A stretch of 53,928 nucleotides of DNA, filler included, from Jimgerdemannia flammicorona (GCA_003990765.1; 2 parts of 2 records of this genome joined end to end with filler, not necessarily neighbours in it), one strand, 5' to 3'. Numbered from the whole stretch's first letter, positions 30,001-52,859 are shown. Made by a program: numbers and translations. The notes: generated by a model not told the origin, from the letters alone.

Positions 30001-31682
30001 ATCATCTTGCACATCCAAAATAGGTTTCCCACCTCCTTCCCCTCTGGAGTCGCTGGCCTTCCTCCATTCAGCATCAGGGTATTAGCCTCTATACTCACAC
30101 TCTCCTCCCACTCCTCCTCTTGGACAACTACCAATTTATCCTCACTAGCTGCCACCACCTATCTCTCCTTTGCTACCTCAGAAACTTCAAAGTGTACTCA
30201 CTGGGCCCCCCACATGGATACATCCTCTGCCACTCTGCCCCTTGAAGCTGGACCTCATCTAATAAGAGGGTAGGAGTTGGAGAGTCCTCCCAGACCTCAA
30301 ATGTACCATTGGCATATGGGTCATTCCAGTCACCTCCTTAGCCACTTCCAGCCCCTTCTCTGCATTCCTTCTATCTTTACTGGCCCAGACACTCACTTTG
30401 GCACCTCCCATGACCTCAATTCCACCAGCATCCTTCTTTGCCCTGCTCTCTAGGTTTGCCAACAGCTCTCTCCGCCTCTTGTATCCTTGGGATCTTTCCC
30501 ATAGCCCCTTATCCATATGGATCCTCTTTCTATCCACTACCTCCAAATGTCTCGACTCTATATATGCCTTCCAAGCCTTCACCCTCTGCTCCACTGTACC
30601 ACTAAGCTCCTTCAGTACCTCTAACAAATCCTCTTCCTCCTCCTCACTCCCATTCACCCTTATTACTTTGCATATAAATGCCCTCCAAACCATCACTAAA
30701 GACCAGTCCCTAGCCTTTTCTATATTCTCCTTCTCTGCTAATCAAATTCTAACATCAATATTTTCAGTTCTAAATGAGGTCCCCTCCCAGACCTGAAACC
30801 CAACATCAACGACCTCTCTATACTCAGCTATGACTTCCTCGACTCTCCTACTCATCTCCACAGTGGTCACCATGGGTACTCCTTTCACCAGCAGCTGCAC
30901 CACCCTTGGGTCCCATCTCATACAGTATGCCATCAGAACACACAACTCTCCAAAAGTCAGCCCAGCCATCTGTGCTTCCTCCAATGGCTCAGCCTCCTCA
31001 AAGCCCATCTCCACTCCTTCCAATCTCTTCAGAAACTTCATGGACACTGCTCCAGCCACCCACTTAGCAATCAGCCCCAACACTATTTTCACTGTCACTG
31101 CTAAGCCCCAGAAGTACAAAGTAATCATGAACTCTGAGATTGACTTCTTGAGAAATGGGGCCATCACTAGGCCCATTACACCATCTACCAGATCCCCATC
31201 CATTCAAGCCCCATCCTCTCAGCCCTGTCATCAGCAGTCATAACTGGATTTTATTTTTAGATTAGCAGTCTCATTGCCATCAGCTGTCACACCTACCCCA
31301 GCCACTATACCTCCAGCTCTACTGCCCCTACTACTAAGGACTGCTCCCTCATACCCTACTGTCTTCACCTTCCTCAGCCAGCTCTCCAGCCCAGATGCTG
31401 GCTGTCCCCCCTTCACTATATCTGTGAAACTTGGCCTCTCTATCTCCTGTCCTCCAACCCTGCTCCTCTCCATCCATGTCCTCCTGTCAGCAGACTCCTC
31501 ATACTTACCTCCAAGCCCAGGCCCCTCTTTATATGCTGCCAGTTGAATGTACTAGAGCCATCCTGTCTAGTATGTATCTCAGAATACACATTGATCACTA
31601 TGTTACTAGTTGCTTTTCTCTGAAAATAGTGTTGTGAGTGCTGCCAAAGATTGTGTAACCTGAATGTTACTGGAGAAAGATG
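27015..31682 (-). mobile_element. LINE copy 4 (3' part lost at the gap), abutting a family-A Gypsy fragment
   Basis: Colinear with copy 1 from ~1110 to 5797. Motifs DWKNWRLIILLDIDR, LGRDFNMV and ORF1 WDPRVVQLLVKG. Confidence 0.92.
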
Positions 31683-31687
31683 CAAAA

Positions 31688-34068
31688 TCAACTGAGTTGA
31701 GTTTGTTTATAATAATATCAAACAAGCTTCCCTCAGAATAATCTCATTCTTTATCAATATAGAACAAAACTCAACCACTTCTCTGATCCTTATCAGAACT
31801 ACAGATAAACTCTCTACTGTTGAAGCTATTGAGGAATTCTTACTTTGAATATGCAACCTGAGCTAAATCACAATTGAAAACCTATCTCAAGCTCAATATC
31901 AATAATCTTATATCAATTAGTACTACTGAGAAGAAACTTTTAATATTAGAGAAAAAGTTCCACTAGATATCTGAGGATACTGAGTTGATAACCTTCAGCT
32001 CAGACCCTCTATAAAGCTGAACAGTAAGTTCATCAGACAATTAAAAATTATTGCACAAGTTACTCCAATATTCTATAAACTAGCCCTACTGAATTCTATT
32101 AAGACATACTAAGTCTTCAATGTTCAACATCTCAAGCAATATAATGAAAATGACAATGGACTATTCTCAAATCAAACTACAAAACCACTAGTACCTATCA
32201 TCATTAATGACTAAGAAAAATACAAAGTTGAGCAAATTCTTTACAAATATAGCCACAATAATCACCTAGAATATCTGGTCAAATGAAAAGATTATTCAAT
32301 CCACAATGCTATATGAGAATCTAGAATAAACCTTCAGAATACTACTAACTTAGTTCAAGAATATGACTCCTTAACCAACTAGGCCAACTCACTCTGACAT
32401 CTACCATTACTATACTATATTACCTTTTCTGAACACTGTTATAGTATTCTTAAAATTATCATGAACAAAATCAAAGACTCTGCTATATCTTAGCAAAATG
32501 AGACAAAAGAAATACAGATCCTCTAGAGAAATAGCAAAACTGAAAGTCAGCCTATTCTCCTAATATCACTGATAGGAAATGAGATATCAATATTTAAGAA
32601 AATTCTATAAAGGAAATTCTCCAGCAGTGAATGATATCAGAATTACTTCTGGTGTACAGTATTAAATACATGACTCTTGAATATGTGAATTCAATATATT
32701 AGGCAACTGTACTACAAGCACACTACTTTCTGAGAAAAAAGAACATTATCAGACTTTTGAGCATCTCAATGGTGTAACAACACTAGACCAAATTCGAAGA
32801 TCTTGATGAGAATGTCAAAAACTAAGAAAGAGAGAGTTATAAGCATACAATCTCTAAGCCACTGAAATTGTACATTACCCTCAGAACAAATCTGGAAATT
32901 ATATTCAAGATTACAAAGATGAGTCAACTTGAAGTTACAGAATACAAGATATATAAAATTGAAACCTTACTAATTAGGACCAAAAGTATATATACTAAAT
33001 ATACAGTATATCAAAACAGAGAACCATAATGAACCAAAAACTATAACTATAAACTCTCAAACATATACTCAGCCACAATTACCAAAGTCTACAATGCTTC
33101 TATACTGACATTTAGAATACCATTATCAACTACACTACAGCACTTAGGTCTCTTATGAATATTTATAACTTAGCACCTCTCTATTTTGTAGAAGTATGAT
33201 AGAATACTCTAAATATACTTGGTAAAGATAAAATACCTCTTCTCTGCTCACCAACATTATACTCAGCATATGAAACTGATGATGCTATCCTGTGAGATGA
33301 CAACTTTATTCTAATATACTACTATATGAATGAATAAAGAGATATAATCCAAGAATCCCTCCTTCCTAAAAACTACATCATAAGAGATAATATTATTGAT
33401 AGCGATCTTTCAAAGAGTATCCATATAGTGTCAAAATCTATAAATAGCTTAACAGTTATTAGCATAATTAGATTAGCCTTATACTAGATAACCATATACT
33501 AACTCAGCAGTCAGTTGATCTTTTGACATATCAGTTTACCTTTTGTATTATATAACTGCATTCTGACTCATTAAGCACTAAAGTACTATATCTATATTTG
33601 GCCTAGTCCAGCAAGTCCCCCATTAGTATAAATATCTCTATCACTAAACCTCAGAAACTCACAAGAATACTGATAAGAATACTTTCCCACAAATATTCCT
33701 TCACATACTTCTCCTAGTATTAGCCAATAGAAATATTATAAATAGTAAATAAATCTATTTAATAACTCACAAATCACACTTAAGTAAACTTATACTATAT
33801 TATATCCTACTCCTAGCTAGATCTAGAAAATACCTAATTGTATATTGTCTGCAACAATATGTCAATTCAACTAAGCTGGTCTTAGTTTCTTAAACTTTCT
33901 AAAATAAGAAAACCTAAATATTTAGAATAGATCCTAGAAAGGACTTTGGTTAAGAAGTCAATCTAATCTTAAAATTAATAAGTATAGAGGATGTACTCTA
34001 TATGAAATTGATCTTGAAAAATAGTCTTTCAGAACTATGTAACAGTACTCTAATAAATACTCCTTTAT
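31688..34068 (+). mobile_element. Decayed 3' fragment of Gypsy family A (integrase end, chromodomain, PPT, LTR ~32838-34068 with internal deletion)
   Basis: Colinear with the reverse complement of 20435-17284. The LTR starts TATAAGCATAC (= TGTAAGCGCAC). About 0.7 kb of the U3 ORF is missing near 33227. Confidence 0.9.
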
Positions 34069-35445
34069 TGTAAGTAAGTTCAAAATATATATATCCTATC
34101 TATAGACCTACTAGTTCACTTGTCTCTTTACTTTTAAACTATTTCAATCTGAGGTTTTTTCACTCTAGATACTAGAGATATTTTTATATATTTGATATCT
34201 ATATAGTAGCTAAGTTATGGCTTCTTTTTCTATAAGTTACTTTGTATAGTTGTGAGCTTTATACATCTGTATATTTGGCATAATTATGAGTTTATTTATA
34301 TTTATTTTGTATAATTATACAAATTATATAACTATAAAATCAGAGAACTGCTAACTATAATACTATATTATATCAGATATCAGATTCAGATGCTTTGATC
34401 AAATGTCTATTCTTCTAATTATTGTTCCTAATTTTGATCAACTATAATAATATATTATTAATTTTCTATTTTAATATCTTTTATATAAATAAAATATTAT
34501 ATGTTATATAACCTTAAGAATTATTAAAAAGTTGAGTTTCAATAAATATATTTATTCTATAAAATAATAGTAAATTTATAATAAAATCTCTTCTAAAAAT
34601 TAATTCAAATAATATACTTAGTAAATATCCCTTATGATACTTGGTAACTTCTTTATATAATTTCTTCAATAATGTGTAATTGTTACTCTCTTTTATATAT
34701 ATAATACTTTTTTTATTTTTGAGTATGATATCATTCTAAGCTTTGTACATGACAATATTTATAGCTTTATATCACTTGATTTTATCTCTATTTCCTGCTC
34801 ATCATTTATTTGAGTTATTTAAGATATCTTTTCGATTGGAAGTGGTGAGATATTGGGTAACTTGAGATGTATCATATGTCATTTTTTATTGCTTGTGTAT
34901 GGACGTCATCAATTAGAAATCAGTTGTGCGTAAAAGCGTATTGTTTGCATTATCAATAAAATTCGATTACGATTTACAATGGTCTCAAACTGCGTTGTGT
35001 TATTAGCCGCGCTTATGCTATTTGGACTTTTATTTTATTACTCTCCATATCACTCAACAGTACCAGCATCAAGCCAGGCGGTAGCAAAGCACTGATACGA
35101 CGAAACATTGAGACCCTGACCTACAACCAGGGTCACACACAGGTTAAAATAAATTAAGTCATGTTCAACTGAATACTTTGGTGCCATTTCGCTCAGTCAA
35201 AGCAGGATAGGCATAAAGCTTTGCCATATAAAGGTCTGTATTGTAGTCTAGAGTATACAAACCTAATTAATTACATATTTGACTTATATTTTATGTACAT
35301 TCATTGCACATGCATAAAATTGTGCAGTTTTGTCATAATATATACGTGCCTTACTATTGTAATAAATCATATACATTCATAAAATTAAAATAATCCTAGG
35401 TTTTTTTAGCATATTAGGTCGGTAAAAGGTTGGTGGGAATGGAAT

Positions 35446-35955
35446 TCAAGGACTGTCATCCTTGCCCTTGTCACAATTTCTCCCAACTTCGGTACAGCGT
35501 TTGCAAGGAAATCCTTGGCATTTTTTCCTGTCCTTTTTGCATCGAATGCACCGATTTCCAGGAGAGTTCCGTTTTGTTGTCTTGCTGGTAGCATGATTGC
35601 GACATCGTCTCTTCTTCCTCAAGCAATCTGGACATTCCCTGTATCGAATCGGTCCTGGAATGACATTTACAATAGAAATTGGCCCTTCCGGCGTTGCTCG
35701 ATTTATCGTTTCGTTGTTGGCAAAGTTGCTGGTGCGGGCTTCTTCCGAGACGATGTATAATTCATCTGTTGGAACGGTCTCGTTATAGTCCATAAAACAT
35801 CCATAATGTTCCGACGCGGAATGGTCTCGAAATGTATCCAAGTTACATCCTGCGCTACTTGCATCACCAAGGCCGAAAAGACACCATGCGTCACAACAAT
35901 GCATGTCAAACGAGCCGAGTCCGATCTGCGGAATATGCAACTGCTCTCGAGGCAT
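35446..35955 (-). CDS. Small zinc-binding protein: CCCH-type module + Zn(II)2Cys6-like cluster (paralog A)
   Basis: CPDCLRKKRRCRNH, then CIRCKKDRKKCQGFPCKRCTEVGRNC (C-x2-C-x6-C-x4-C-x2-C-x6-C). The Met at 35904 aligns with the first ATG of paralog B. Introns are not excluded. Confidence 0.72.
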   Translation of the reverse strand: MPREQLHIPQIGLGSFDMHCCDAWCLFGLGDASSAGCNLDTFRDHSASEHYGCFMDYNETVPTDELYIVSEEARTSNFANNETINRATPEGPISIVNVIPGPIRYRECPDCLRKKRRCRNHATSKTTKRNSPGNRCIRCKKDRKKCQGFPCKRCTEVGRNCDKGKDDSP

Positions 35956-36157
35956 TGGGAAAGCGTTAGAATATTGTGTTGTTTGAATTGTTATCCACGT
36001 TCCCTTTCAAATAATTTGAGGCGAGGTTCTATATTATACGTACGATTTTGTCCGCGGAATCTATGGAGATTAGTCGTCTGGCGTAGAGTGAAAAGAGAGC
36101 GTAATGGAGGGATGCGGGTGAGCACGATCAAAAGTTCTAGGTGAAAAATAATGGACA

Positions 36158-36166
36158 TATTTATAA
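36158..36166 (-). promoter_or_regulatory. Putative TATA box of paralog A
   Basis: TTATAAATA on the minus strand. TTATAAAT is conserved at the matching position of paralog B (41618-41625), followed in both by TACGCTCTCTTTTCAC. Confidence 0.45.
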
Positions 36167-38574
36167 CACTTTTTAAGTTGCGGAAGGGATTAGTGGCTTC
36201 TCTGGAATGTCGTTAGTTAATCAGAAACTGCGTATTTCTCTTTTTTTAAAAAACAAGGGGGGGGAGGGGGAGGCGGAAAAATGGAAAAGTCGTGTCATTG
36301 TTGTCCCGTGATTATTTTTGCATATGATACTATTCTTTCAATGGAATTTAAGAATTGGCGGACCCGTAGACTACGGCTGGAAGCCTACGGCTGGATAGAT
36401 TTAGCCAAGTTTTTTAACTTAGTTCGGTGCCAAAGTCATAGGAGGTGTTTGGTGTGCTATAATAATAATTATGCTATAATTACCATTCGCAAAGCGTTGG
36501 AATGCAGAAGGTTCTATCGAAATAGTGGCATTGAGGCACAACCGAGCAGCCCAATAAATGGTAGCCAAAGCATGCATATTACGCGGGGGCAGTGTGACTG
36601 AAAATTTCTCTCTGAGGTCTGAATCCATTGTGGATTTTGCTGAATGAATAGATAAAAGCTCAAATGAGGCAAACCTGTACAATCACTCTAACAATATCTG
36701 CACATGTGGATGATTCAAAGAGGGGAAGATGACATGATATTGCAAGCGAGTGCTATTACTATTGCACTAACGAATTATCGCAAAACATCCGGGTGGGGGA
36801 AGGTGATGATACAAATCATAGGGTTTCACTTATCTGGCAGCTTGGAACGGCCCACTCTGGCCTTCGGGAGAGGCAAATCGGTACATCACTGCACTCCCAA
36901 AAAATGTCTCTCCGCGTTAGACTGCGGTCTCGAAAATGAAACCTCCCGAAATAAGCGCAAATGCATAGCACGACTACCTTTTATTTGATTGGAATTGTGA
37001 CCGATCATTGTTCAATTATTTCTACATGCCCGTGTTCTGGAGTGCCGTGCCCGATTTCGCCACATTTACTCCTTCCAATCTTAGAGATTTCTCCTTCAGC
37101 GATCTTTGGTGCTTGATAGTTTAAAAAATATAATTTTCATTGAACCAGCTGATTCTGACACAGCCTCATAACCACAGGGAATATTCATCACCGCGCAGAT
37201 GGCTTGGAAAAGTTACACAGTATTCCAATGGAAAGCATCTTTCCATGTTAAAAATGACAGGTAGCATATCCGCAGTATCAGCCGGCGCCGCCCTCGCCCA
37301 TGACTTACACATTACATCGTGAGATCCTAGATTCCTTGCTATTGGAGACGCTATGCCGTCATACCTATTTCGAGAGTATTCCTTTCACCTCGCATTTCCG
37401 GAACCAAAAAAAAGTTGGCGAAGTTCTGCAGCTATCATCATGACATACATATGGTACCGATTAACGGACCCCGATAGCCGGGATCGGCCATTCCAATTGC
37501 CGGATACGATTACGGAGTTCCCGCTGATTCGTGTCAACATCTCTATCACCTGGGTGTTCGAAATTGGCCCTCCACAGTTCATTACTACAATTAGGATACG
37601 ATCGTGACCCCAGTACCTAAATTCCATGCCCGCGTAAATCAAACAAACCAATTAACAGGACGAAGCTTGTCGGGGTGCCCACAATGAAAGTTTGTTTAAT
37701 TCTAATGCTCTTTTATCATGGGTTATACGCGAGGAAAACGGCAAAATTGTGTTCCGCAAAATGACAAAACCGTAATAATCCGATTTAATTCACGCAGAAG
37801 CACTACTAAATGCCTGTACTTCACTTTGCTTGTAGGCAGACGGGTTGAACACCCACATAAAGTCGTTTAACGAGGGCACGAAAATGGGAGACGTTGTGCC
37901 TCGAGGCAAAAATTCATCGCCGCTTGAAAGTCGCTTCCGCGAGTGACTGGCATACTCTTGACAGGGCTTGTGTACGCGATTTGGGCCCTTTTCAATTTTT
38001 TACTCACCATATCTCTAAGCGTTATTGTCGATAACTTTCCTTTTCAACTTTTCAATAACATTACAACACAATCCATCTCCGTCGGCGTCAATCAGGTGTA
38101 GATCCCTTCGTCATATATTACTCAAAATCGGACGTTCTATTGTCGTCCTCCAGTCAAAGCGCGCTCTCAAAGATGCGCTACAATCGTGGTAAAGGAAAGA
38201 GTCACAAATACGCGTTTATCGCGCTCAAGAATGGCATAAGCGTCTCTAAAGTATTCCATTGGCTCAACACCATCCCGCAACGTTTGACATAGCCATCGCG
38301 AGGCAACCAAAAATGCATGGTGTCTCATTAATCCACAAGAGCTCGCCATCCTTTAATGGAAACCACCTGTCAGACTGGAACGCAAACGAATGGATCGCAA
38401 ACAAGCTGAAAAATGACGACACGCGCCATACAAATTTAGATTTAAAACTGGAGCCAAAACATGCCGAAAGATGATGCAAAACCTAAGGGGAGGCATGAAT
38501 ATATGTTTAATAACAATTAGTATGTCAAGAGATGGACAAGATTAAATCCAACGGCCGCATCACTGACTAAACAA

Positions 38575-39960
38575 ATCTAAAATCCTGAGTCGGAATCCAC
38601 CATGGATCTTGTAAGACCTAAAATGAGGCAAACCTGTAGTATCACTGTAACTAGCTCTGTTAATGGGGATTATTTTGAGAAAGATGCGATAATTTTTCAA
38701 GCTAGTGCTATTGTAATTGTTCTGCAGAACTGTCAGGTAAAATTTCCAAAACCGGGTGAGAGAGATAACGACACGAATCAGCTCAATGAATAATGTCCGA
38801 TTTGTATTTTTATGACTTTAAATCTGTTTATTTCAAGCCATAAATCATAAAGACTTATATATGCAATCCTATATATGTACTCTATATTACGGCCACGTCA
38901 TAGCCAACTGACACCATGTCTCGATTCTTTAGCTGAACTTTCTCATTTCAAGGCTCTCTATTTAGCCTTACATACCTGTGCTTTGGGTCGGCCTACCTGC
39001 GGAAACGACTTCTGTTTCTCAAATGTGCTTTCGTAATATTTTATTATGAATTATTTAAATTTCCTTTATGCTTTCTAAGTTTAAGGGGACCTTTCATAGA
39101 ACTAGATGATAATGATCTCATTAAACTCGTGCTTGACACAGCCTCGGACACTCATCATTGCACAGCGCAAATTCCTTTTTTTTTAATAAATAACGCAGTA
39201 CATCTACGAGTATCACTAACGGAACTAACAAATTCTAACAGGAAATATCATTCCGCGAGAACAATCAAAGTTTGTTTCTCCGCAGAATGCCCTCGCCTGT
39301 GACTCGCAGGTCACATTGTGCGATCGTATATTCTTTGCTATTCGGACCCGCTATATCACTGCGATTGTTTCAAGAAGACCCCGTTTCAACTCGCACTCCC
39401 TGAACCTAAAGATATCGTCACGGAACGGAATGACTCATATATGACAGCTGTCATCATGACATGTGCGTATTGACGTATCCCGATGTCCGCAGCAGACCGC
39501 CCCAGTCTGCCTGATACGGTGTTCCGCCCTGATCAGTGTCAACAGTTCCCGAACCTGTTTGTTTGGTATTTGGATATTGACGCCCACCGACTATTATTAT
39601 TTATTGGTTCGAAGGTCGGAATTCCAACTTGCTCCGAGGGGAAAAAACCCCGATATTTCCGTTGGAACAAATCGAATCGACTATGAACGGCGCGAAAGTT
39701 TCGCGATGCCCACAACGTAGCGTTTGTTTTATCTCAATTCTTTGGATATGCAAACGAAGAAAATGCTAAAATTGTCGCCCCTACCGATTTAATTCCCGCA
39801 GCAGCCCTACTAAATTTCCGTGCATTTGGTATGCAGGCACGTTGATCGCACACATACGTTTTTTTGCGAACGCTCGAAAACGGAAAACATTGGGTGAAGA
39901 CAAAAATTCCATTGGGGCTTGTTCGGTGGCGGAGAGCGAAAAGTCGCCTCCGCAAGGACA
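38575..39960. repeat. Segmental repeat unit C (partial, no zinc-finger gene)
   Basis: AAATGAGGCAAACCTGTA, TGACACAGCCTC, GCCCTCGCC, TCATCATGACAT, CCGATTTAATTC and CTACTAAAT match unit A 36610-37940 in order. Confidence 0.82.
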
Positions 39961-40679
39961 TAATCGCAGTCACAAGCCCGTCAAACGCCAATCGAGAGCT
40001 GGTGGATTTGTGACTGCAATGGTATAAAAAGGAGTGCCTATTTGAGTCAGTGGCGCGAGGGACCTTAGAAATCGCTCTATGGAAGCCCAACGGTTCCATG
40101 TGTATCCCCAAAACCATTACAGAGGCGTACACGTCCACCTTTAGGTATCTATAGTATTGGAGGAAATTAATAAAGACCACATTAGAACTACAGGAATTCC
40201 GGTGCATATTTTTCAGGCTTGACAGGTTTCATTGCGACGTTTTATTTAACGAATTTACTTGGGATAGGTCCGACTTTTTCAGGCTACAGACATTAGCGAC
40301 AAATTTCTATGTGAGATCTCGCGCGCGAGATCAAGTCTCAACACTCAATAAGCGAATAAAATTTCCAACTAATTCGCGTTCCTTTTCCGCCGGTTTCTGA
40401 CGCCCGATTCGGTGCTGTTTATTTATAAATGCATTGTTGTAATATGGGTTTTTTAAAGAAAGCGAACAGAAGAAGCGATTTATTGATATTGCAGAGTAAC
40501 ACGCTTTTTCGTGGGATGTGGCGTGAAGTCACGTGCCTTGTAATTTCAACATGCATTACCTATATGCTCACGTCGTTCTACACCTATCGCTCTGCGCTAC
40601 ACACATTACAATCCTCGCTCTACACGACATGGTCTCCACATTTCTTCCTCACCCGCCTCTCCTCTATATCTAGATTCCT

Positions 40680-43345
40680 GCATGTCATTCGGAATTTACT
40701 TTGCTCAGTCAAAGAAGGACATGTATAAAGCTTCCTTATACAATTCTAATCATATGGTATACAAATCTATCTACTATGAATTTGCCTTATATATATTACA
40801 TATGCATAAAGTTGGATAGTTTTACCGCATAATGTATACATGATGTACTATCGAAATACATAAATTCACGCAATTTATTATTATTTTCAATAAAGCGGAT
40901 CCGTTAAATTTCCGTGAGTTTATCTCTAAGTTTGAGATCTAGGACAGCCTTACTTACTATCCACACGGAAAATCATACAAAAAGGTTTACAACGTCTGCA
41001 GTGCATTCCCCGATATCCCGTCTTGTCCAATTTGCATTCGATGCACACCTTTCGGGGAGAATTCCGTTTTGTTTTCCTGCTGGTAGAGTGAACTCGACAT
41101 CGCCTTTTCTTCCTCAAGCAGTCTGGACATTCCTTGTATGGGATCGGTCTAGGAATCAAAGTGGCTCTGTTTGCGGTTTGGGTTTGTAGGACATCACATA
41201 CGCTAGAAGGGGGACCGGCAGGGAGTTGCTGCAAAATTGGCTCAGGCTCCGACGTTGCTTGATTTGCTGTGTCGCTATTAGCCAAGTGGCCGGCGCAGGT
41301 TTCCGTGGTGAAGCGAAATTCATCTGTTGGAAGGATGTCGTTGTTGTCCATAAACCCTTCATAATGCTCTAATGTGGAATTCTCATGAAGGGTATCTAAT
41401 TGTCCTCCTGCGCCAATTGCATCTAGGCAGAAAAGACACCATGGGAAACAAGGAGACATGCTACAAGAGCTGGTGATATTATTATGTCTTTTGGACCTAA
41501 AACGATTGACCGCGCTGCGCAAACGACAAGAGTCTTTTGATGTGTATGTGAAAAGAGAGCGTAATAGGGGATGGGGGTGGGCAATATGAAAAGTTTTGGT
41601 TGTACAGTAGTGTATGGATTTATAACCAAAAATTTAGTGGCGTCTTCCGAGTGTCATTAGTTATTCGGAAACAACATATTTGTATAACCAGCGCTCTCTT
41701 ACGTTTTTATATTTTTATATTTATTTATTTTATTTAAAGAGCCGTGTCAATATTACACCGGAGGGAATCTTTGCGCATGGCAGAATTCTTTCAATGGAAA
41801 TTAAGAAGCGGAAGGGTATTGTCGGAGCCGAAGACTATTGTCGGAAGCCGAAGGCTGGGGATGTTTCGTGCAATTCGTTATTACATAAATTTAGTCCCGT
41901 GGCAATTACAATTATGCTATTATTCAAATCACACGGACATTCGTAACAGAAGGTTCCATATATATTATGTCATCACGCCGCAACAGATCAGTCCCACCAG
42001 ATAATGAACAAATCCCCCGGGTTAACAGTAATCTACGCATCTAGATATCATGCAAAAATAATTACCTCACCCGGAATAGATCCAACGGTCCCTTTGCAGA
42101 AAAAATGAGCTTCGAAAAATTTGCCTGAGATCTGAATCCTGCATTGATGTTGCAAAATGTGTTGCAAAGTTAAAAGATTTATTTGAAAGAGAAGATAAGA
42201 ACTCGAATGGAACGACCCTGTACAATCATCCTAACTAGTTCTTCACACGTGGGGATGACCGAAAGAAGGAAGATGCCATGGATTGCCGACGAGTGCTATT
42301 GCTAACGAAATGTCAGAGACAATTTTTAGTCCACTATATCCAACAGCTTGGAACGTCCTATTCCAGCCTTCGGCATAAGCAAATCGTTACATTTTTGCCC
42401 TTGCAAATATATCGATCCGCGTTCAATAGCGGTCATTAGAAACCGAGATTTTCGAAAGCAGAGCACAGTTACTTTTCTATATTTGGAATTGAGGCCCATC
42501 TTCGTTCAATTATTTTTATACGCCCCGTGTTCTCGGGTACCGTGCCTAATTGCCTTTTACACGTCAGTGTTTATGGGTCAGCATTACAGCGGAAGCGACT
42601 GCTATAAATTACGCTTCTACTCGGATTTGGAACTCGTCCCTGGCTAAGACTCAAAATCACATGGAAATTCAATCGTCACACAAACGGCTTCGAAAAGGCG
42701 ACACATCCGCAAGCTCAACTAACGGAACGAGCAACTAAAAATGAAAAAGAATTATTCTGGGAAAACAGCGCCGGTATTTCAGGGCACCGACTCGCCCATG
42801 TCTCCTGCCTCCCGTCATGCGACCCTTGATCTTGGCTCTTCGGAGCCGAGTATCGCGCTCACTCGAAAAAGTCTCGCGCTTCCCGAACCGAAATATGTCG
42901 CTACGGAGTGCGGATTGACGCAGTAGCCTTTGGCTGTCGTCATGGCATGACGTACATGTTTACGAGCCCCGAAGAACGGAGCATGTGGTGATTCGAGTGT
43001 TTCGAAAATGGCTTCCACAATTGTATTAGTGTTGATGGTTCGGAAGTCGGAATCCGACCTCGCACAGACGGAATAAACTCGACGCTTCCTTTCCGCCAAT
43101 CGGTTCCATCAATAAACGGGACTAAGATATTTATGATGCACTATGCAGCGTTTGTTCAATGTCAATTTTCTATGCGACAAGAAAAATCCGTATTTAGCAA
43201 AATGGCGAAACGGTAATAATCCGATTACATTCGCCCGGCAGCGCTACTAAATTTTCGTGCACACTTTTATCGCACACATGAAGTTGCTTTACCGACAAAA
43301 TTCCTTTGGTTTGCGTAGAGCGAAAATCGCTTCCGCAATGTCACA
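40680..43345. repeat. Segmental repeat unit B
   Basis: Colinear, diverged copy of unit A in the same orientation. Confidence 0.85.
40950..41459 (-). CDS. Zinc-binding protein paralog B (CCCH module intact, Zn2Cys6 cluster degenerate)
   Basis: WCLF...LDT...EHY.GFMD...PTDE and ECPDCLRKKRRCRVH...KRNSP are shared with paralog A. The third cluster Cys is Tyr. First ATG at 41459. Confidence 0.65.
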   Translation of the reverse strand: MSPCFPWCLFCLDAIGAGGQLDTLHENSTLEHYEGFMDNNDILPTDEFRFTTETCAGHLANSDTANQATSEPEPILQQLPAGPPSSVCDVLQTQTANRATLIPRPIPYKECPDCLRKKRRCRVHSTSRKTKRNSPRKVCIECKLDKTGYRGMHCRRCKPFCMIFRVDSK

Positions 43346-44109
43346 TGATCCCAGTCACAACCAGCCACAACCAGGCTTCAATCTGTTTACCAATCAAGGG
43401 TTATCTATAATTGACAGCGGGAATTGCATAAATTTATTTACTCTCACATCACTTGTCCTTCTTCTCTTTTCTCCTATGTATTTCCCTCAAACCTTGCTGT
43501 TATTGCCCACAATTTCCAGATATAAAAAAACAGCTTAATTCTCCTCATTGCAATGGCAATATTATATATATAACAAAGACAGGTATCATTATAAAAATAA
43601 TTCAGCATTCTCACAAAATTCTAATACATTTATAGTATTTTTCAGAACTCCGGAATGCCAGTATATTATATAAATAAGAATATAGATTATATAGACCAGA
43701 ATGTAGTAAAAAAGGAATAAACTATAATTCATCTAGAATATTGATAAATTATATAAATATGAAGGCAGATTACATATCTAAATACTCAGAATTATTATTA
43801 AAATCAGGCAGTATATCGAACATATCTGAATATACTAAGATATAAATGTTTTTAGTATATAATTAGAAGATTACTATAGAAAAAAATATATATTAAATAA
43901 AATAAATAAAAAGTATATATCTCATAATTATATTTTAATATATTGAAATAAGTTAAGCTTCAGAGATGAGAGTAGTATAAATATTATTCTTAAGTATATA
44001 TATCATCTTTGCCATAGGCTCATAAATAAAATGAGATAGATAGTTACTATTAGTTATATATAAAAGAACTAATGATAATGAGATCTAATATAGTATACTA
44101 TATATATAT

Positions 44110-45312
44110 TGTGACAAGCAAGAGAATTGCACTAACGAAATCATAAATTAGCCATATACCATATCTAGTGCACCAAGCAACCAAGACTACTTTGCTGCAC
44201 CAACCTGTATATTTAGCCAGAAATACCAGAAACAGTATGTTTACCTATACCCTCAAGATACACCATACCCTCTCAAAGTACACCATACCCTCAAAGTACA
44301 CTGTACCCTCAGGGAACACTTGCCATAGTTAGCAATCTATAGTTAGCCATATAGCAATCAGATAGCAACCAACTTGTATAAATTACCCCAGAGATAAGAG
44401 TGAATAAAACCTCAGTCCGAAATTGAAGCAAAAGACAAGTCTGCCTACCACACTTCGAGAGGAACTCTACAGCCACTGCTAGGAGATTGTGAGCTTATTT
44501 CCCTACTCCGGTCCACTTTCTGATACAAAGAACAAGTCCGTTTTTGGTTCGCTTGCCAGATAAAGCCTGAAAATTTCCACCTTTCTGCCGCCAAAGAAAA
44601 TGCCTGCCTTTCTTGCTACAAGCCAGTCTATCTGACGCAACATCGCAGTAGAGTCAGTCTATCGACGTAACTCCATGCAAACGAAGCCAGTCTTGACGTA
44701 ACTTGCCAAGAACCTGAGTTAATTCCCAGTTAAAGCCGCCAGCACATTTCCCAGTTGAAACTGCCGTTTTCGAATTATCCGCATCCCCAGAGAACCCTGC
44801 CGATTCAGGAAGAATCCGTGATATCCAAGTTATCCGAGTTATCCAAATTATCTGCGTCATCTGAGTTATCCGAGCTATCCATGCCATCCGAGTTATTTCC
44901 CAGAAGCCTGCCGATTCAGGAAGAATCTGCGCCAGTACTGTTCTCAGTGAGCCAAATCGAGTTGTCCGCCAAATCCACATAAGGAGTATTGCCAAGATCG
45001 TCACGCATAAGGAATCCGCCTCGCTACACAAAATCGTCACCTACTTTTGGAGATCGTCGCGCTACACACGAATTCTACCAATTCCGAGTTGACCCAAGAA
45101 GGAAACCCATTCACACGAATCGCCGCTACACCCAGAGAACCATCCCAATTAGGAAATTGACATACAAATCACTCGCAGATATCCAATATTGACTATTATA
45201 CCACTAAACACCAAGAACATTTTGTTGCTTTTAACAAAGTAACTGGGGGCTCAAGCCAAACTACATCAACCCCCAACCTTGTAATTTGCCTCCATTGAGC
45301 CGGCACATTACA
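44110..45312 (+). repeat. 5' LTR of Gypsy B
   Basis: 44110-44419 matches 52860-53169. It ends GGCACATTACA just before the PBS. It has internal TACACCATACCCTC repeats (~44259-44310) and a 9-mer array. Confidence 0.88.
44812..44892. repeat. Nine tandem 9-mers (consensus TTATCCGAG) bracketed by a 21-bp direct repeat
   Basis: Units gaatccgtg/atatccaag/ttatccgag/ttatccaaa/ttatctgcg/tcatctgag/ttatccgag/ctatccatg/ccatccgag. CCTGCCGATTCAGGAAGAATC occurs at 44796 and 44907. Confidence 0.9.
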
Positions 45313-45314
45313 TT

Positions 45315-45332
45315 TGGGGGCTCAACTGGGAA
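45315..45332 (+). other. Primer-binding site, tRNA-Pro-like
   Basis: TGGGGGCTCAACTGGGAA lies 2 nt after the LTR-terminal CA and resembles the retroviral tRNA-Pro PBS TGGGGGCTCGTCCGGGAT. Confidence 0.7.
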
Positions 45333-45399
45333 AGATTTTAAAATCAATGTGACTTTTCAGCTCATAAGAACCCATAGTCAAACTGGATACATTTGATAC

Positions 45400-46900
45400 A
45401 ACACCATTCTCTGCCACCACAGGAGAACCAGTTATTACCAGCATCTGGACAGGAAGAGAAATAATCACCTCAAGACTTGCCAACTACCCAGCATCAGAAG
45501 GATCCCAGCCAGAAAATAGTATAGCTGAAAATCCCCAACCAGATCAACCAGACAATACAGGTGGCCCAATTGGAGATTTTGAAGAACTTGCTCAAGAACT
45601 AGAAGATCTCATCACACAAGCCCAAGATCATACAGCCAGGCACTCCATACCAGTCCCATCAATCTCACCAATAGAACCTTTACCACAAACCTTTGCAGAA
45701 GTGGAAGTAGCTCCCACAAGAATACCTAGACCTATTCTATATCATCCAAGATCCAGAACCCCATCTTTAGGATACCCAAGCACCCCTACTTCCAGTGATA
45801 GTTCAGGATCAGAATCAGGACCAGAACCAGAATCAGAAGAAAGTGATGATGAAATGGCCACCTCATTGCCAACCTTTGCAGGATACCCAGAGGAAGACCC
45901 CAGAGAATTTCTTGATAGAATTGAAGGAATTGTAGCTCTGAGAAATCTCTCAGATAAAAGAAAAATTGTCATTTATAAGGCCCAGCTCAGAGAACCAGCT
46001 AGAGGAATTTTCCACCAAACTGCGGATGACCCGAATTCAGAACTAGCAAGACAGATACAAGCAGCAGTGTCCAAAGAGCTAGAATATTCAGCCATGGTCT
46101 ACTGGCTTATTGAAAAGTATGCAGGGAATGAGACCCACCACAAGGCCCAGGAATCCATCATGGGAATGAAGATGAATCTTGGTGTATCACCCAGAGCCTT
46201 CTTCACAAGAATTCAGAAGAGAATGTATACTGCCAGGTTCAATGCCACCAATCAGGACATTATAGGTCCAATGACTTTCATGAATGGGATTCTACCAAAC
46301 ATTGCTCAGCATGTCTGCACTCTGGGCATCAGAAGGTCTGAGGAGCAAGTAGATGCAGCCCAAGGATTCTTTGATGTCAGTTAAGGAACCACCTGGAGTG
46401 ACCATGACAAGAAAGAAGATAAAGAAGACATTCTGGTCAAAGCCCCACAAGGACTCCTCCAAGAACAAGAGAGGTCTGAAGAAAGAAGGCCAGCCAAAGA
46501 AGGAAAGAAGGACAGAAGTGAAATCCAAGACCTCAGCTCCAAGTTGGATCAATTGGTTGAACAGATTGAAATACTCACTATATGTGAAAATTGGAGCTAC
46601 CAAGACAACAGAGGATACCCACCACAGAGGAGCCAAGGTTATCCACCAAGAGATAATAGGAGCTATCAGCAAGAGGAAAGGAGGTCCCTGTCCAAGATAG
46701 AGCCCAAGTTCAATATTTCTACTGTGGACAATTTGGACACTATGCCACGGAATGTGACAACAAAAGAAGTGAGTGAAGGGAATCAGAACCACCAAGCCGA
46801 AGAAATGACACCCAGCACAAGAAGGCAGAGGCCCATCCTGTTGAAGATTTTGAGGAAGCCAGTAACAGTGAAGATTACAGTAATCTAGATTTGTATCCTA
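45400..46900 (+). pseudogene. Gypsy B gag
   Basis: LPTFAGYPEEDPREFLDRIE capsid-like start. A frameshifted knuckle (Y<C)FYCGQFGHYATEC lies at ~46713-46755. Boundaries are approximate. Confidence 0.8.
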
Positions 46901-47369
46901 CTAAGATTACAACTCAAAAAACAGTCTACCCAGCAGAGAAGAGGAAGAGATCTGTTAGAAGGCTATCCAGAAATGTCAACAGAAGGATTATCCAAGAAGG
47001 AGACGAAGAACATGAAGAAGAACAGACAGAAACACCTCCCTGAACTCCCTCACCTTTTGTCTCTGAGACAAATGAGCTGCCACCAGAAGATGAAGAAATG
47101 GAACAAGAAGAACAGGAACCTGCTGCCCCAAAGCCCAAGAAGAAGTACACCCCAAAGACTATGCCTAGAGATATCTATAATGAAGTCTGGCAGAAGATTC
47201 AAGAAGCCAAGATGGAAGTCCCTCTCCTACAGTTCCTGCAACTGACACCAGCTGGAGTCCAAAACAAATTACTGAGGACCACCAGGTGTAGCACAGGCAG
47301 AGTTCCAATTCCACAGCAAGAGTCAGCTACCATTCCTATCCAAGCTGCAGAAAGACATGTCAGTACTTA

Positions 47370-47720
47370 CCTACATAGAGATATTAGAGGACAAAAGGCG
47401 AAAATTCTCATAGACACAGGAGCAGCTGTCTGTGTCATTGCCAAATGATTCCTGGATACCCTCCAATGGCCCATTGATGGACCATCCAACCTCAGCATCA
47501 TAGTAGCAGATGGAGCCCGAACTCAACCCATTGGAGAAGTACAAAACATCACTATTTCCCTTGAACACATTCAGTTCTCCATCCCAAAAGCTGTTGTTAC
47601 CAAAGCTATCACTTATGATATGATCCTTGGTACCAACTGGATGAAAGAGATGAATGCAGTTGTTGATATTGGTCAACAGGTACTCAAGTTTGACTACTGA
47701 GGCAAGAAGTACAGAGTCAA
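47370..47720 (+). pseudogene. Gypsy B aspartic protease
   Basis: KILIDTGAAVCVI...IVADG...PIGEV...YDMILGTNWM. Confidence 0.9.
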
Positions 47721-47904
47721 GGTGACCAGCTATGAGCAATCAAAGAAGAAGAAGAAGGTCACTATCCAAGAAAAATATGCCAGCAGTGAAGAATCTACCA
47801 CAGAGGAGAAAGAAGAATCCGAAGATGGAAACAATCCCAGACTTAATCCCTGGATCAACCTAGTGGATGATAGGCCAGAAGACAATGTATGGGTCAAGAA
47901 TACT

Positions 47905-48066
47905 GTTCCTATTACCATTGGAGCTATTGCGGGAGAAATCAAAGGATGCCCTACCTGCCTCAAGAGACACAGGTGTCCCAAGCACTCCTCCAAGATCATA
48001 GGAACAAGGAATTCGCCTGGCACAGCCTGCCCTGAGTGCAGAAGGAAGAAAAAGAAATACAGACAT
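47905..48066 (+). other. Tandem Cys/His zinc-finger insert in the Gypsy B polyprotein
   Basis: VPITIGAIAGEIKGCPTCLKRHRCPKHSSKIIGTRNSPGTACPECRRKKKK(Y<C)RH, in frame with the protease. Confidence 0.8.
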
Positions 48067-49029
48067 GTCCCAAAGACATCTGCAGCTGAAGCTGCAGAAG
48101 TACAAGCAATTTGGAATCAGGAATTATCAGAGGAAGAAGAAACCCTGGAATAAGAAGTTCCTGAACAAGAAACACCGAAAGAGGAAGAAGAAGTCCCTGA
48201 ACTCATCCCCTAGGATGACCCCTGCTGGACACTGCCTGAAGATGATGACCCATGGAAATATGAAAGAAGGACCCAGCACCACCCCCACTATTCCCAAGAA
48301 AGAAACTCATCAAGAAAGAGCTTTCTAGCTAGAAAGATGTTCATACCAAATGATCTTCCACTCACCCTGAGACTACTGTTATCAGTGCCACCTACTAGAC
48401 CAGCAGGAAAAACAGAAACCCCTGGAACCAGAATACCCAATGACAGTCATACAAGCAACTACCTTTCAAGAAGTAACTACCAAGTTATAAAGTAGATTTA
48501 GAGGACAAGGTCTCTTTATCTGAACAGAAGTATACCCATTATCTACCCTTCCCCAAACCTATGATCAAGATGGGTACTGATTCTCGAGACAACAGGAGAT
48601 CAATAACCAGGAACAACATTTCCGAGCAATGGGATATTGTAACCATGGCAGACATCCAGACTGCCGAGACTGCAGATACCAGAAAATTCACCTCAGTCAT
48701 GATGTTGTGATCCATACTTTGAAGAGAGAAGACAATAGAAGTCAGATTTGAAAAAGTCAGACCAAGAAGCCAAGGAAAAGGATTCTCAAGATCTATGATC
48801 TAGGAGAAGACCTCCTAGCCCTCATCAGACATACAACTCGCCAAGGATGGGCAGAAGATGCCACCAATTTCATGGAAGCCTTGGACCCTACAGGAAGAAG
48901 AGGAATCAATTATCTCTGAGATCCAACTACTGGAGCCAGGTGGCCACACCTCAATCTGAGAACCTGGAGGCTTTCCCCCAGTGGAGCCTCCGCCCTAGGT
49001 CAGCCCAAACTCAGCAGGGATATTGCCCA

Positions 49030-49433
49030 GTATGCTATATTGCATCCCAAGGCCAAACCCCTAACCAAAGCCCATCCAGAAGATGTAGGATATGACCTTT
49101 ACAGTCTGGAGGACCAGTCTATCAAGCCTGGAAAAACATTCATAGTCAGAACTGGACTAGCCATACAGCCACCTCAGGGAGCTTACATTCAACTGACCTC
49201 AAGGTCTGGGCTTGCCCAACAAGGAATAACAGTAGAAGGAGGAACTATTGACCCAGGATATACAGGCGAAATCAAGGTCATCCTACACAACAGTGGTACA
49301 GAATGGCACCAAATTATAAAAGGGCAGAAGATTGCTCAAGCAGTCTTCATGAAGGTCAAGACCCCACAGTTATAAGAAGTCTCTGGACTAACTGAAGGAA
49401 CAAGACAAGCCAAAGGGTTTGGAAGTTCAGATA
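49030..49433 (+). pseudogene. dUTPase domain of Gypsy B, between PR/ZnF and RT
   Basis: DVGYDLYS, SRSGLA, GGTIDPGYTGEIKV, GQKIAQ and RQAKGFGSS; one TAA at 49373. Confidence 0.93.
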
Positions 49434-49824
49434 AGAAGGAAGTACACCTCCTCCAAGTCAACCATCTCAAGAGGAATGTCCCTCAGCAAGTGTACTGCCA
49501 ACTAGTTAGATTGCACAAGAATCTCATTCTGGAGCCTGGAGAACAAACCACCTTCGAAATATTTGCACCACCTGATCCCAGAAACCTTTTCTTTGAACCC
49601 AGTGAAGATATCCCTCACCTAGACATAGAAGGACATACATTCCCAGACAAGATGAACCCAGTATACTCCCAAGGAACCAACTAAAGTTGGGAAACCATCA
49701 TCTTACTGAAAGGAATCATCATAGGACATCTGGTGCCGTTCCTAAGCTGAACTCATAGAGAAGTTTATAAATTAAACCTATCGGGAAATGGCAAAAGGTT
49801 CCAGAAGAAAGGAAAGGCCCCTCT

Positions 49825-52323
49825 GTGACCCAGGAGACAGTGAAGCCTTCCACCAACATTGGAGAAGAATTGACACCCCAGCAGCAACAACAACTAGTAA
49901 AACTCCTCAACAAATATCAAGATATCTTCACCACTGATTATGGCAACCTGCCATACAACCCATCATATCACCACAGTATAAATACAGGAAATGCAACACT
50001 CATCCAGAAGAAACCATATAGGATACCCCATCATCTAAAGATATTCAAAAAAGAACACATTCAAGAACTTCTGGATAATGGAGTCATCCAACCCTCAACC
50101 AGCCCCTGGGCTAGCCCTATACTTATTGTACCAAAGAAAGGAGGATGGAGACTCAGTGCAGATTATAGAAAACTCAATTCAGTTACTGAGAAAGATGCTT
50201 ATCCTCTGCCCAGAATCAATGATCTCTTGGATCAGTTACAAGATGACAGATACTTCAGCAGTATGGATCTTTTTGCAGGATTCCATGAGATCCCCATAGA
50301 CCCCAAAGACATTCAAAAGACAGCCTTCCTTGCTCTAGAAAAACTGTTTGAATACCTCCGAAAGCCTTTTGGACTTTGCAATGCACCCCCCACATTTCAG
50401 AGGATGATGAATTCAGTCTATGCCCCTTTGATCCACCACTACCTGATTGTATATATGGATGATTCCAACATCTATTCAGCAAACTTTGAAGAACACCTGC
50501 ACTACCTTGAACAATTTTTCAAGCTCACCCATAAGAACCACCTGAGACTCAATGCAAAGAAATGCTACTTTGGAAAACAGAAACTCAAATTCCTTAGATT
50601 CATAGTTTCAAAGGAAGGAACCCATGCAGATCCAAAGAAAACTGAAAAGATCAACAATTGGCCAGTATCCAAGACTCTCAAGAAAACACTATCATTCCTG
50701 ATGCTAGTATCCTACTACAGAAGATTTATTAAGGACTTTGCTCAAATCGCTGCCCCAATCTGAACCCTTCTCAAGAAAGGAGTACCTTACAAATAGACAC
50801 AATCACAAGAAAAAGCCTTCAAAGAACTCAAGAACTGTATGACTACAGCACCAATCCTTGTGCGCCCCAACCTACAGAAGCCATTCATCTTGTACACAGA
50901 TGCTTCTAAAGATGGCCTGAGAGCAGTTCTAGCCCAAGAAGGACCTGACCAACAATACCATATGATAGCTTATTCAAGCTGAGCTACCAATCAGCAACAG
51001 ATGAACTATGGTAGCACCAAATTGGAATGCCTTGCAGTCATATGGGTGGTTACTCTGTTCAAGCATTACCTCATTAGAAAAAGGTTTACCCTGATCACAG
51101 ACCATATAGCAAATGGCTATTCAACCGCAAGGAACCCACCAGAATCCTAGTCTGCTGGTTCCTTATCCTTCAAGATTACAAAATCACCATTATCTACAAA
51201 GCAGGGAAAGCTCACAACAATGTTGATGTACTTTCCCACCAGCCCCAATGAACTAGAAGAAGGGTGTCCCAAGGAACTATACCCTAAAGGAAGCTCCTCA
51301 GACCATCAAGACACAAGAAGATCTTATTTGAAAAGAACATCAGAAAGCCCACCAAGGACAAGCAAATATAGAAATGAAGCTGCAAACAACACACCAACAT
51401 TGGCCCAACCTCAGAACACAAGTCTGGGACATACTTAAGAAATGTGATACCTGTCAGAAGTACCAAGGAAAGAAGAATTATCAAGCACCACTGCAACCAA
51501 TTGCACCACCAGACAACATCTTTCAGAGATGGGGAGTAGATATAATTGGACCTTTACCAGTTATATCAAGAAGAAATAAGTATATTCTCGTATTTGTGGA
51601 ACATCTGACCAAGTGGCCCAAGGCTTTCCCAATGGAAATCATAGATGTCTTGACCATTGTAGGCCTTCTCCATAGACTCTCACTATATATGGACCTCCAG
51701 AAGAGCTTATCTCTGATCGAGGCACAGAGTTCATCAACAACATAATTATGAGTTATGTCAGAATTCACAAGATTCACCTCAAATAAACCACATCATACCA
51801 TCCCCAGACCAATGGCATAACAGAAAGAATGAATGAGACCATCAAGAGAGGACTTGCCCAAGTCAATCCTACCAACTGGGACCTCTGCTTACCTGAGATC
51901 CTATGGAAAATTCAGAACATCTCTGCTGCCTCTACCAAACAAAAGCTATTCGAAATGATGTTTACTAAGAAGAGTAGAACTGCTGACCAAGAGAACCTCA
52001 GAGACCTCCTCAAGAAAGCAGAAGATTTACATAATCAGGCCCAAGTTCAGATTATCAAAGCCCAAGAAAGACAATAGAAGGACTATAATCAGAAGCAGAA
52101 GGATCAGGAGATCAAGATTGGAGATCAAGTACTAGTTTGGAGAAGCATGATCAAAATAAACTTTACCACCAAACTGGAGCCCAAATGGGAAGAACCTTAT
52201 CTTGTGCATAATATCCAAGGAACCAGCATCTATTTAAGAAGCATGGAAGGACAACCCCTCAGGACACCAGTATATATCAACTGCCTCAAGATATACCTCT
52301 CTCATCATGAACCAGACCATTGA
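49825..52323 (+). pseudogene. Gypsy B RT, RNase H and integrase (no chromodomain)
   Basis: SPWASPILIV, DYRKLN, PFGLCNAPPTFQ, YMDD; YTDASKDG; CDTCQK, WGVDIIGP, HPQTNGITERMN, KLEPKWEEPY. Confidence 0.95.
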
Positions 52324-52819
52324 CCAGTGCCTCCAGACCCTTGTTCTGAGTTTATTCCAATTACTCCCAGTTTCCCTTCCACAATTCCAACAAGCTGATG
52401 GAAACCCCCTTCAGCAAATCCAGACTCATCAACAGAACCTCACCTTGGCCAGACATTTACTATAAATTCACCAGCTGCAGGCCTACTATGTAATTGGAGA
52501 ACAGTTGCAGAGCCTCCCAATAGCAGGCCTGACTTACATCAGGAACTCCACTGGCCTCACCCAGAAAAACACCACTGCTGTAGACAGATTATACACAATC
52601 TACAAATGAAACATCCCAGTCTTGACATAAGCACAATTCCTTCTGAATGACATTCAGAATATGAACCCTGCCACCTACTGAAGCATTATCAATCATGTCG
52701 AAATCCTGTTTCCAGAAGAAGAAGAGGAACCTGTTGAGTAAAGCAATTCTGATCCAAATGAAGATACCAGTTCAGGTATTGATGCTGAAGATGCTTATGC
52801 ATACTGGAATGATGACTAA
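52307..52819 (+). pseudogene. Extra ORF3 between integrase and the 3' LTR, function unknown (170 codons)
   Basis: One frame MNQTIDQCL...QLQAYYVIGEQL...VDRLYTIYK...AYWNDD* with five internal TAA/TGA stops and no frameshift. Confidence 0.7.
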
Positions 52820-52859
52820 AGGATTGTCTGAGAACAGACCATCCTTTAGTGGGGGCTGA

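Follow-up and report, generated by a model that had tools for sequence, protein, structure and literature searches.

A zinc-cluster module shared by two tandem genes and a decayed Ty3/Gypsy polyprotein in Jimgerdemannia flammicorona: probable capture of a host domain by a retrotransposon

Background

Accessory domains govern the integration and control of long terminal repeat (LTR) retrotransposons, and the chromodomain and dUTPase are the textbook examples. The Endogonales, which include the fungus considered here, are an under-sampled, early plant-symbiotic lineage. In fungal Gypsy elements, a dUTPase located between protease (PR) and reverse transcriptase (RT) is known (PMC2864245, PMC6431247), and the genomes of the Jimgerdemannia flammicorona lineage are described as ~240 Mb in size, with more than 77% repeats and with Ty3/Gypsy elements dominant (PMC10386755). 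In this work, we describe a zinc module that occurs in two tandem open reading frames (ORFs) of a locally duplicated region (the island), named ORF A and ORF B, and also in the pol region of a neighbouring, decayed Ty3/Gypsy element, named Gypsy B. All three lie in a stretch of J. flammicorona DNA of 53,928 nucleotides (nt), filler included, which consists of two parts of two records of assembly GCA_003990765.1 joined end to end; the whole of this stretch is referred to below as the window.

The similarity among the three copies was first noticed from the sequence of the window, and this original prediction offered two explanations: either the retrotransposon captured a DNA-binding domain of the host, or the host domesticated a finger of a transposable element (TE) and then duplicated it. 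A literature search, in which the matching of search terms was partly loose, returned no paper that describes a zinc cluster within the pol of a Gypsy element, and neither "Zn2Cys6" nor "Zn_clus" occurs in the main text, as far as it was available, of a screen for TE co-option in fungi (PMC10799480). Our preferred reading, which we consider probable, is that the module is a real, Endogonales-restricted zinc-cluster domain and that an ancestor of Gypsy B took it from a host gene family.

Results and discussion

Homology of the three copies

BLASTP aligns the ORF A protein with the ORF of Gypsy B that contains the module (the Gypsy ORF; coordinates of all features are given in Table 1) at 24 identical residues out of 75 (E 3e-9). 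The aligned segment is short, rich in Lys and Arg, and regular in its Cys spacing, as would also be expected from a chance resemblance of basic Cys-rich peptides. This explanation was confronted with a shuffle test, in which Smith-Waterman scores were compared with those of 5000 shuffles that kept every Cys and His fixed in place. The ORF A-Gypsy alignment scored 108 (shuffles: mean 41.0, standard deviation 9.2, maximum 84) and the ORF B-Gypsy alignment scored 93 (mean 41.2, standard deviation 9.5, maximum 88); thus, in this Cys-preserving comparison, which the original prediction had itself proposed, neither score was reached by any of the 5000 shuffles. Independently, a hidden Markov model (HMM) was built only from 12 family members found outside the window (see below) and was run on 1675 six-frame pieces of the window. 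It returned ORF A at 74.3 bits, ORF B at 54.8 bits and, at 50.2 bits with an E of 1.5e-14, the piece from Gypsy B. Since the next best piece reached only 7.8 bits, the window holds exactly three copies of the module and no fourth. By both measures, the similarity is homology that extends beyond the Cys spacing, and chance resemblance is left with practically no probability.

Several details of the original prediction can be evaluated at this point. The peptides that it quoted from ORF A (residues 91-146, GPISIV...KKC) and from Gypsy B were both located where it had placed them, and its claim that residues other than the Cys/His ligands are shared is borne out by the fixed-position shuffles and the outside HMM. 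In contrast, the upstream match that it described as PI(S/T)I..I.G.I requires a shift of one residue, and in the flanks that precede the first Cys on the N-terminal side the similarity is no more than marginal, the scores there being reached by 108 of 5000 shuffles for ORF A-Gypsy and by 601 of 5000 for ORF B-Gypsy. Beyond the module, nothing was found to be common to the element and the island, all other pieces of Gypsy B matching the island at E >= 0.02.

A small family in the Endogonales

With a profile made from the three copies, 1.84 billion representative proteins were searched at a cut-off of E <= 1e-3. Among the 15 matches, 13 were judged from their sequences to be real, in that they have the full pattern; the other two (P0010 and P0011) are repetitive proteins in which several weak stretches were matched, and they were set aside. 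None of the 13 relatives contains a TE domain of Pfam, while one contains Myb domains and another a sub-threshold C2H2 finger. Nine of them carry a species name, eight from J. flammicorona and one from Endogone sp. (Endogonales), and five have the UniProt label "Zn(2)-C6 fungal-type domain-containing".

Other searches did not extend the family. Run on longer proteins, the family profile gave five matches, all known already, and a word-based search of the Gypsy ORF against longer proteins gave none at E <= 0.01 among 1296 candidates. In metagenome contigs, 127 pattern matches to a four-sequence alignment and 518 to the Gypsy ORF alone were obtained, of which none was confirmed. An exact look-up of ORF A, ORF B and the Gypsy ORF in a collection of 15 billion proteins found none of the three.

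The family consensus consists of C-x2-C-x5/6-C-x2-H, a spacer of 7-12 residues, R-x-x-P-G-x-x, and C-x2-C-x6-C-x-G-x-x-C. In about half of the members, a further C-x2-C-x6-C arrangement completes the Zn2Cys6 pattern; the others, among them P0004 and the Gypsy copy, are without two or three of the final Cys. Seven columns (C..C, H, R..P, C..C) are invariant across all 15 aligned sequences, i.e., the 12 from outside and the three copies of the window. The module is a real domain of ~55-70 residues and belongs to a small family confined to one fungal lineage. Outside the window, the family is known, as far as these matches go, only in proteins that lack TE domains, those with a species name all being from the Endogonales.

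Four hypothetical proteins of the Endogonales illustrate the family: RUP13587.1 (P0004), RUS32295.1 (P0002), RUP49734.1 (P0006) and RUS15077.1 (P0008). They contain the same two-part module, with cores that are 26-48% identical, but they differ in length (174-713 amino acids, aa) and have unrelated flanks, and none is part of a polyprotein. P0004, which also has the RNSPG motif, is the nearest neighbour of the Gypsy copy. By eye, this J. flammicorona protein has about three tandem acidic repeats of ~60 aa each (...SPNESCEEYDHDMVS.EFDD...) after its zinc module.

Zn2Cys6 nature of the second half

The Zn2Cys6 consensus is CX2CX6CX5-12CX2CX6-8C, and domains of this class bind two zinc ions and recognise DNA with CGG half-sites. 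ORF A has all six Cys in the arrangement C-x2-C-x6-C-x4-C-x2-C-x6-C, where the loop of four residues between the halves is one residue short of the consensus. The third Cys of this second half is kept in ORF A and in all 12 outside members; it is replaced by Tyr in ORF B and in the Gypsy copy, which retains only the first two Cys of the pattern and lacks the remainder of the Zn2Cys6 half after the Tyr.

When an AlphaFold (AF2) model of the ORF A module was submitted to Foldseek, all 15 listed matches were Zn2Cys6 proteins, the highest-ranked of them having a root-mean-square deviation (rmsd) of ~1.5 A across 28-38 columns. A search independent of Foldseek, covering 48,161 chains, gave nine with Z >= 2, again all Zn2Cys6 domains; the best was Pho7 (Z 4.7, rmsd 2.8 over 48 residues), and the chain matches cover only residues 41-81 of the model. 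A profile search of PDB also gave only Zn2Cys6 proteins (five matches, E 0.08-0.33). From the fold match of the ORF A model and the remote sequence match, the second half of the module is a Zn2Cys6 (Gal4-type) domain, as had been anticipated in the original prediction; the Gal4-type fold was found for the ORF A module only. The module modelled in this way probably binds DNA.

The first half gave no structural match, either in Foldseek or among the 48,161 chains, and was modelled only within the whole ORF A module. An hhalign comparison with the initial half-cluster of the Zn2Cys6 half gave a probability of 86% (E 5.5e-6) over 14 columns, which is suggestive of an origin of the extra CCCH unit as an internal duplicate of that half-cluster, the segment being short and basic. 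A search of the ESM Atlas with ORF A gave best scores of 0.80-0.84, which are below the usable range, and a Zn_clus cluster that ranked third is no more than a lead; the Gypsy ORF gave no usable match there.

The zinc knuckle of retroviral and gag proteins has the spacing CX2CX4HX4C. This CCHC knuckle was considered for the module and rejected: the spacing of the module is CX2CX5-6CX2H, and the module lies downstream of PR, not in gag.

Origin of the module in Gypsy B

The RT of Gypsy B has thousands of relatives, the best of which, among the matches listed, is 48% identical. None of the 120 listed relatives of 547-2000 aa contains the module, in agreement with the earlier statement that it is not part of a normal Ty3/Gypsy pol, and there was no polyprotein among the profile matches in the 1.84 billion representatives. 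The absence of the module from these related polyproteins makes it likelier that the element captured it from the host than the reverse. This direction is also favoured because all 13 real relatives are free of TE domains, the named ones belong to the Endogonales, and the fold is of the host transcription-factor type. Within Gypsy B, the module lies ~200 nt downstream of PR, with two stops between them; because the two agree in strand and frame, the module can be assigned to pol.

The opposite direction would require that the finger arose in the Gypsy lineage and that host genes, including ORF A and ORF B, descend from a co-opted TE fragment. A family that is lineage-restricted, fast-evolving and variable in architecture, and that occurs in genomes described as very TE-rich (PMC10386755), would suit such a history, and the family tree is unrooted. 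However, the host-type Zn2Cys6 fold, the 13 relatives and the 120 polyproteins all speak against it, and the Gypsy copy is a tip beside P0004 rather than a deep branch. We consider domestication very unlikely; between the two directions that had been proposed at the outset, capture of a host domain is the one favoured.

In the best tree, which is based on ~61 columns, the Gypsy copy groups with P0004 (support 92/87), and ORF A groups with ORF B elsewhere (85/77). In the core, the Gypsy copy is 36% identical to P0004 and 31-33% identical to ORF A and ORF B. The domain is too short for the placement of the Gypsy copy to be settled.

This tree also bears on a functional pairing, in which ORF A, ORF B and the Gypsy module would bind the same DNA and the free genes would regulate the element, serve as decoys for it or restrict it. 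The original prediction put forward such a TE-host pair as a candidate. The partners are within ~12 kb of each other, RNSPG is shared, and a clade of ORF A, ORF B and the Gypsy copy was not rejected by the approximately unbiased (AU) test (p 0.19). Against this, the best tree places the pair of genes apart from the Gypsy copy, the flanks are marginally similar at best, the element is dead, and a gene near a Gypsy copy is unremarkable at the repeat content of more than 77% reported for J. flammicorona (PMC10386755). A functional pair is thus extremely doubtful. Since the genome is so rich in repeats and dominated by Ty3/Gypsy, the closeness of the three copies is unremarkable, and the position of Gypsy B beside ORF A and ORF B is most plausibly a coincidence.

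A more serious alternative, unlikely as it is, is a one-off chimera, in which the module entered Gypsy B alone, for example as a fragment of a family pseudogene through repair or gene conversion during or after insertion, without ever having functioned in a lineage that transposed. Since database searches found no Gypsy-borne relative, an event private to Gypsy B has to be reckoned with. In addition, the distal Cys residues are missing from the single TE-borne copy, in which one ligand position is occupied by Tyr, and the family genes 4-12 kb away make a local donor conceivable. On the other hand, the module is in the strand and frame of PR, with open reading through it, which would occur by chance in one case out of six; its core is too dissimilar from those of ORF A and ORF B to be a recent copy of these neighbours; and neither repeats nor composition showed a boundary in its surroundings. 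Its third-position composition also matches the element and not the island genes: A makes up 0.34 of third positions in the Gypsy ORF and 0.32 in RT, versus 0.25 in ORF A and 0.24 in ORF B. The difference in codon usage that had been noted before is thus real but modest, and we take it as a weak sign of long residence of the module in the element.

A number of observations weigh against capture of a real zinc-cluster domain by an ancestor of Gypsy B. In the searches, only one TE-borne copy was seen, itself decayed, and neither protein nor metagenome data yielded a Gypsy-borne relative, although the protein library may under-represent TE polyproteins. The tree is weak: it has few columns, a Gypsy branch of 3.05 and no branch at the strong-support threshold, and the clade of the three window copies was not rejected. 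Of the outside members, only P0004 has RNSPG in common with the three copies of the window, where ORF B has it in the form RNSPR. The constraint on ORF A and ORF B is weak (see below). As for the zinc cluster, the model of the ORF A module is of middling confidence (mean pLDDT, the predicted local distance difference test, of 72.7), and the Z and E values of the structural matches are low. Zn_clus (Pfam PF00172, gathering cut-off 21 bits) matches none of ORF A, ORF B and the Gypsy ORF at E <= 0.1, and among the 13 relatives it passes only in P0006 (23.7 bits), with P0012 (15.4 bits) and P0015 (15.9 bits) below the cut-off. Note that the structural scores are weak because the domain is tiny; the argument rests on the exclusivity of Zn2Cys6 proteins among the matches.

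If capture of a host domain is the correct reading, the mRNA of a host family member most probably entered an ancestor of Gypsy B, for instance through template switching while RNA was being reverse-transcribed, in the same class of event as the known acquisition of dUTPase. In an active element, a basic, zinc-containing and DNA-binding peptide, either released from Pol or attached to it, could conceivably have served in nuclear import, target tethering or LTR binding.

The island genes

ORF A and ORF B are 46% identical as proteins (75 of 163 residues, E 5e-41) and 70.5% identical as DNA, and both frames are open. All five internal indels between them are multiples of three, compared with 7 of 48 in the flanking alignment, and in a neutral simulation with 15% divergence per lineage only 5.9% of the copies remained open. 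The two ORFs are, on this sequence evidence, old tandem duplicates whose reading frames have been held open by selection, because both are open despite their divergence, the indels come in multiples of three and few copies stay open under neutrality. The ratio of nonsynonymous to synonymous divergence (dN/dS) is 0.61 (bootstrap range 0.38-0.96). Such a dN/dS points to weak constraint.

In the family tree, ORF A has the shortest branch (0.18) and ORF B a long one (1.1). ORF A has remained close to the family consensus, and ORF B, which has lost a ligand Cys, is probably degenerating. Both are presumably small nuclear DNA-binding regulators, as suggested by an acidic N-terminus combined with a basic zinc domain.

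The units that contain ORF A and ORF B repeat with a period of ~5.5 kb and represent an old local duplication. A partial third unit, defined by the blastn blocks 36653-36757/38612-38712, 37290-37354/39289-39354 and 37780-37915/39784-39909, gave no match to the module. The possibility that the island is a TE-derived unit was considered and is not supported, with no Pfam match at E <= 0.01 in any of 82 six-frame island pieces.

Two further features of the island were observed. Each duplication unit, and likewise the partial unit, contains one copy of a repeat of ~77-125 nt (36633-36757, 38592-38712 and 42176-42300, three copies in all). Between the two units that contain the module genes, there is an ORF of 157 aa (39734-40207, minus strand), which is rather long for a GC content of 42% and has no Pfam match.

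Structure of Gypsy B

According to Pfam and a reading of the translation, the domain order of Gypsy B is gag, PR, zinc module, dUTPase, RT, RNase H and integrase (IN). Two LTRs enclose PR, RT, RNase H and IN in the order that defines Ty3/Gypsy. The LTRs are 91.4% identical over 304 nt (44118-44421 versus 52868-53169). They are unequal in length because the 3' LTR contains three tandem units whereas the 5' LTR has one related stretch, of 40 nt (45028-45067). There is a run of purines before the 3' LTR; the flanks of the element showed no matching target-site duplication, and no chromodomain was detected in it with Pfam. We regard a sub-threshold Snf7 match of Pfam on a protease piece (E 0.0019) as a chance result.

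Along the element, the frames of the successive domain pieces are 1, 1, 2, 1, 1, 1, 2 and 1, and there are in-frame stops, so that no intact gag-pol frames were found. Because of these frame changes and stops, this copy of Gypsy B is, by its sequence, dead.

Table 1. Positions of the island genes, the island duplication units and the parts of Gypsy B in the window
Feature	Position	Strand	Remarks
ORF A	35446-35955	-	169 aa; acidic N-terminal part, zinc module at C-terminal end
ORF A Cys/His core	35473-35634	-	CxxC-x6-C-xx-H, then RNSPG, then CxxC-x6-C-x4-CxxC-x6-C
ORF B	40950-41522	-	Tandem paralogue of ORF A; 190 aa from TTG, 169 aa from ATG at 41459
ORF B Cys/His core	40977-41129	-	Tyr (TAT) in place of the family's third Cys of the Zn2Cys6 half
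Island duplication unit 1	35188-37915		Holds ORF A; blastn blocks 67-82% identical to 40700-43261
Island duplication unit 2	40700-43261		Holds ORF B
Partial third island unit	38612-39909		Without module ORF; from blastn blocks
Gypsy B, decayed Ty3/Gypsy LTR retrotransposon	44110-53690	+	~9.6 kb; from LTR pair and Pfam map
Gypsy B 5' LTR	44110-45068	+	End approximate; weaker similarity blocks as far as 45068
Presumed gag ORF	45368-46384	+	338 codons stop to stop; no Pfam match; assigned from its position in the element
Aspartic protease	47044-47700	+	DTGA and ILGTNW motifs; interrupted by a stop; RVP and gag-asp_proteas matches at E 0.04-0.05, below Pfam cut-off
Zinc module in pol	47905-48066	+	Residues 62-115 (VPITIG...YRH) of ORF 47722-48153
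Gypsy module core	47947-48060	+	CxxC-x5-C-xx-H, RNSPG, CxxC, then Tyr (TAC) at next Cys position
dUTPase	49040-49375	+	Between module and RT; Pfam PF00692, E 5.9e-25, 88 bits
Reverse transcriptase	49825-50763	+	Pfam RVT_1, E 1.5e-29
RNase H	50797-51147	+	Two pieces with a stop between; Pfam RT_RNaseH_2 and RT_RNaseH
Integrase	51332-52077	+	H2C2 finger and core remnant in two frames; Integrase_H2C2 E 2e-5, rve_3 E 9e-4
Gypsy B 3' LTR	52860-53684	+	End approximate; three 85-nt tandem units at 53475-53684

Other features of the window

A second, different Gypsy-type element, which is without the zinc module, lies on the minus strand at 18266-26000 (RT/RNase H, 21356-22747; integrase, 20330-20809). 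Two related ORFs in inverted orientation, 18266-19060 (minus strand) and 23099-23629 (plus strand), flank this element, and both start with MTTEIYN.

Three blocks (1-10000, 14000-17000 and 27000-31500) show a GC skew of -0.34 to -0.55, with about two to three times as much C as G on the plus strand and no matching AT skew. They hold related long ORFs on the minus strand (4199-5647 and 30259-31203) that have no Pfam match and resemble a repeat family. AT-rich blocks (11000-14000 and 32000-35000, GC 0.23-0.31) border the repeat-rich and island regions.

Significance and comparison with known systems

A Gal4-type zinc cluster within pol would be a new type of accessory domain, and would clearly exemplify the acquisition, by a fungal TE, of a transcription-factor DNA-binding domain from its host. 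Apart from the element, the analysis defines a small unannotated domain family in which an extra CCCH unit is fused to a Zn2Cys6 domain, so far in the Endogonales only. The practical weight of the finding is modest, the TE copy being a single dead relic on present evidence. In its boldest form, the interpretation would be that a Ty3/Gypsy lineage of the Endogonales carried a host-derived DNA-binding domain of the Zn2Cys6 type between protease and dUTPase as a functioning component of Pol. Such a domain would tether the element to specific sequences or let it regulate itself, in a way that has not been described for LTR elements, and free paralogues such as ORF A and ORF B would compete with it for its DNA sites or mimic these. 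Taken by itself, the family would then stand for a new zinc-cluster architecture of three units, the CCCH unit and Zn2Cys6 together. We regard this as distinctly unlikely.

Among the known Zn2Cys6 domains (PF00172), such as those of Gal4, PUT3, PPR1, Pho7, Leu3 and HAP1, the second half of the ORF A module finds its counterpart in having six Cys and a basic first helix. Unlike these domains, the present family conserves an additional CxxC-x5/6-C-xx-H unit on the N-terminal side, together with a linker of the form RxxPG.

Chromoviruses are, like Gypsy B, Gypsy elements with a host-type accessory domain for the recognition of chromatin or DNA (PMC10799480). Their chromodomain is located at the integrase's C-terminal end and is found lineage-wide, whereas the module of Gypsy B lies between PR and dUTPase and is seen in one dead copy.

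The closest described elements are the dUTPase-bearing Ty3/Gypsy elements of fungi, i.e., Tmt1 of Tuber, PosPlaTy3-5 of Postia placenta and the Phanerochaete elements, which, like Gypsy B, have dUTPase between PR and RT (PMC2864245). They differ in that no zinc-cluster domain is described for them, the word "zinc" not occurring in the main text, as far as available, of either report (PMC2864245, PMC6431247). At the same time, they provide a precedent for the gain of extra domains in the linker between PR and RT.

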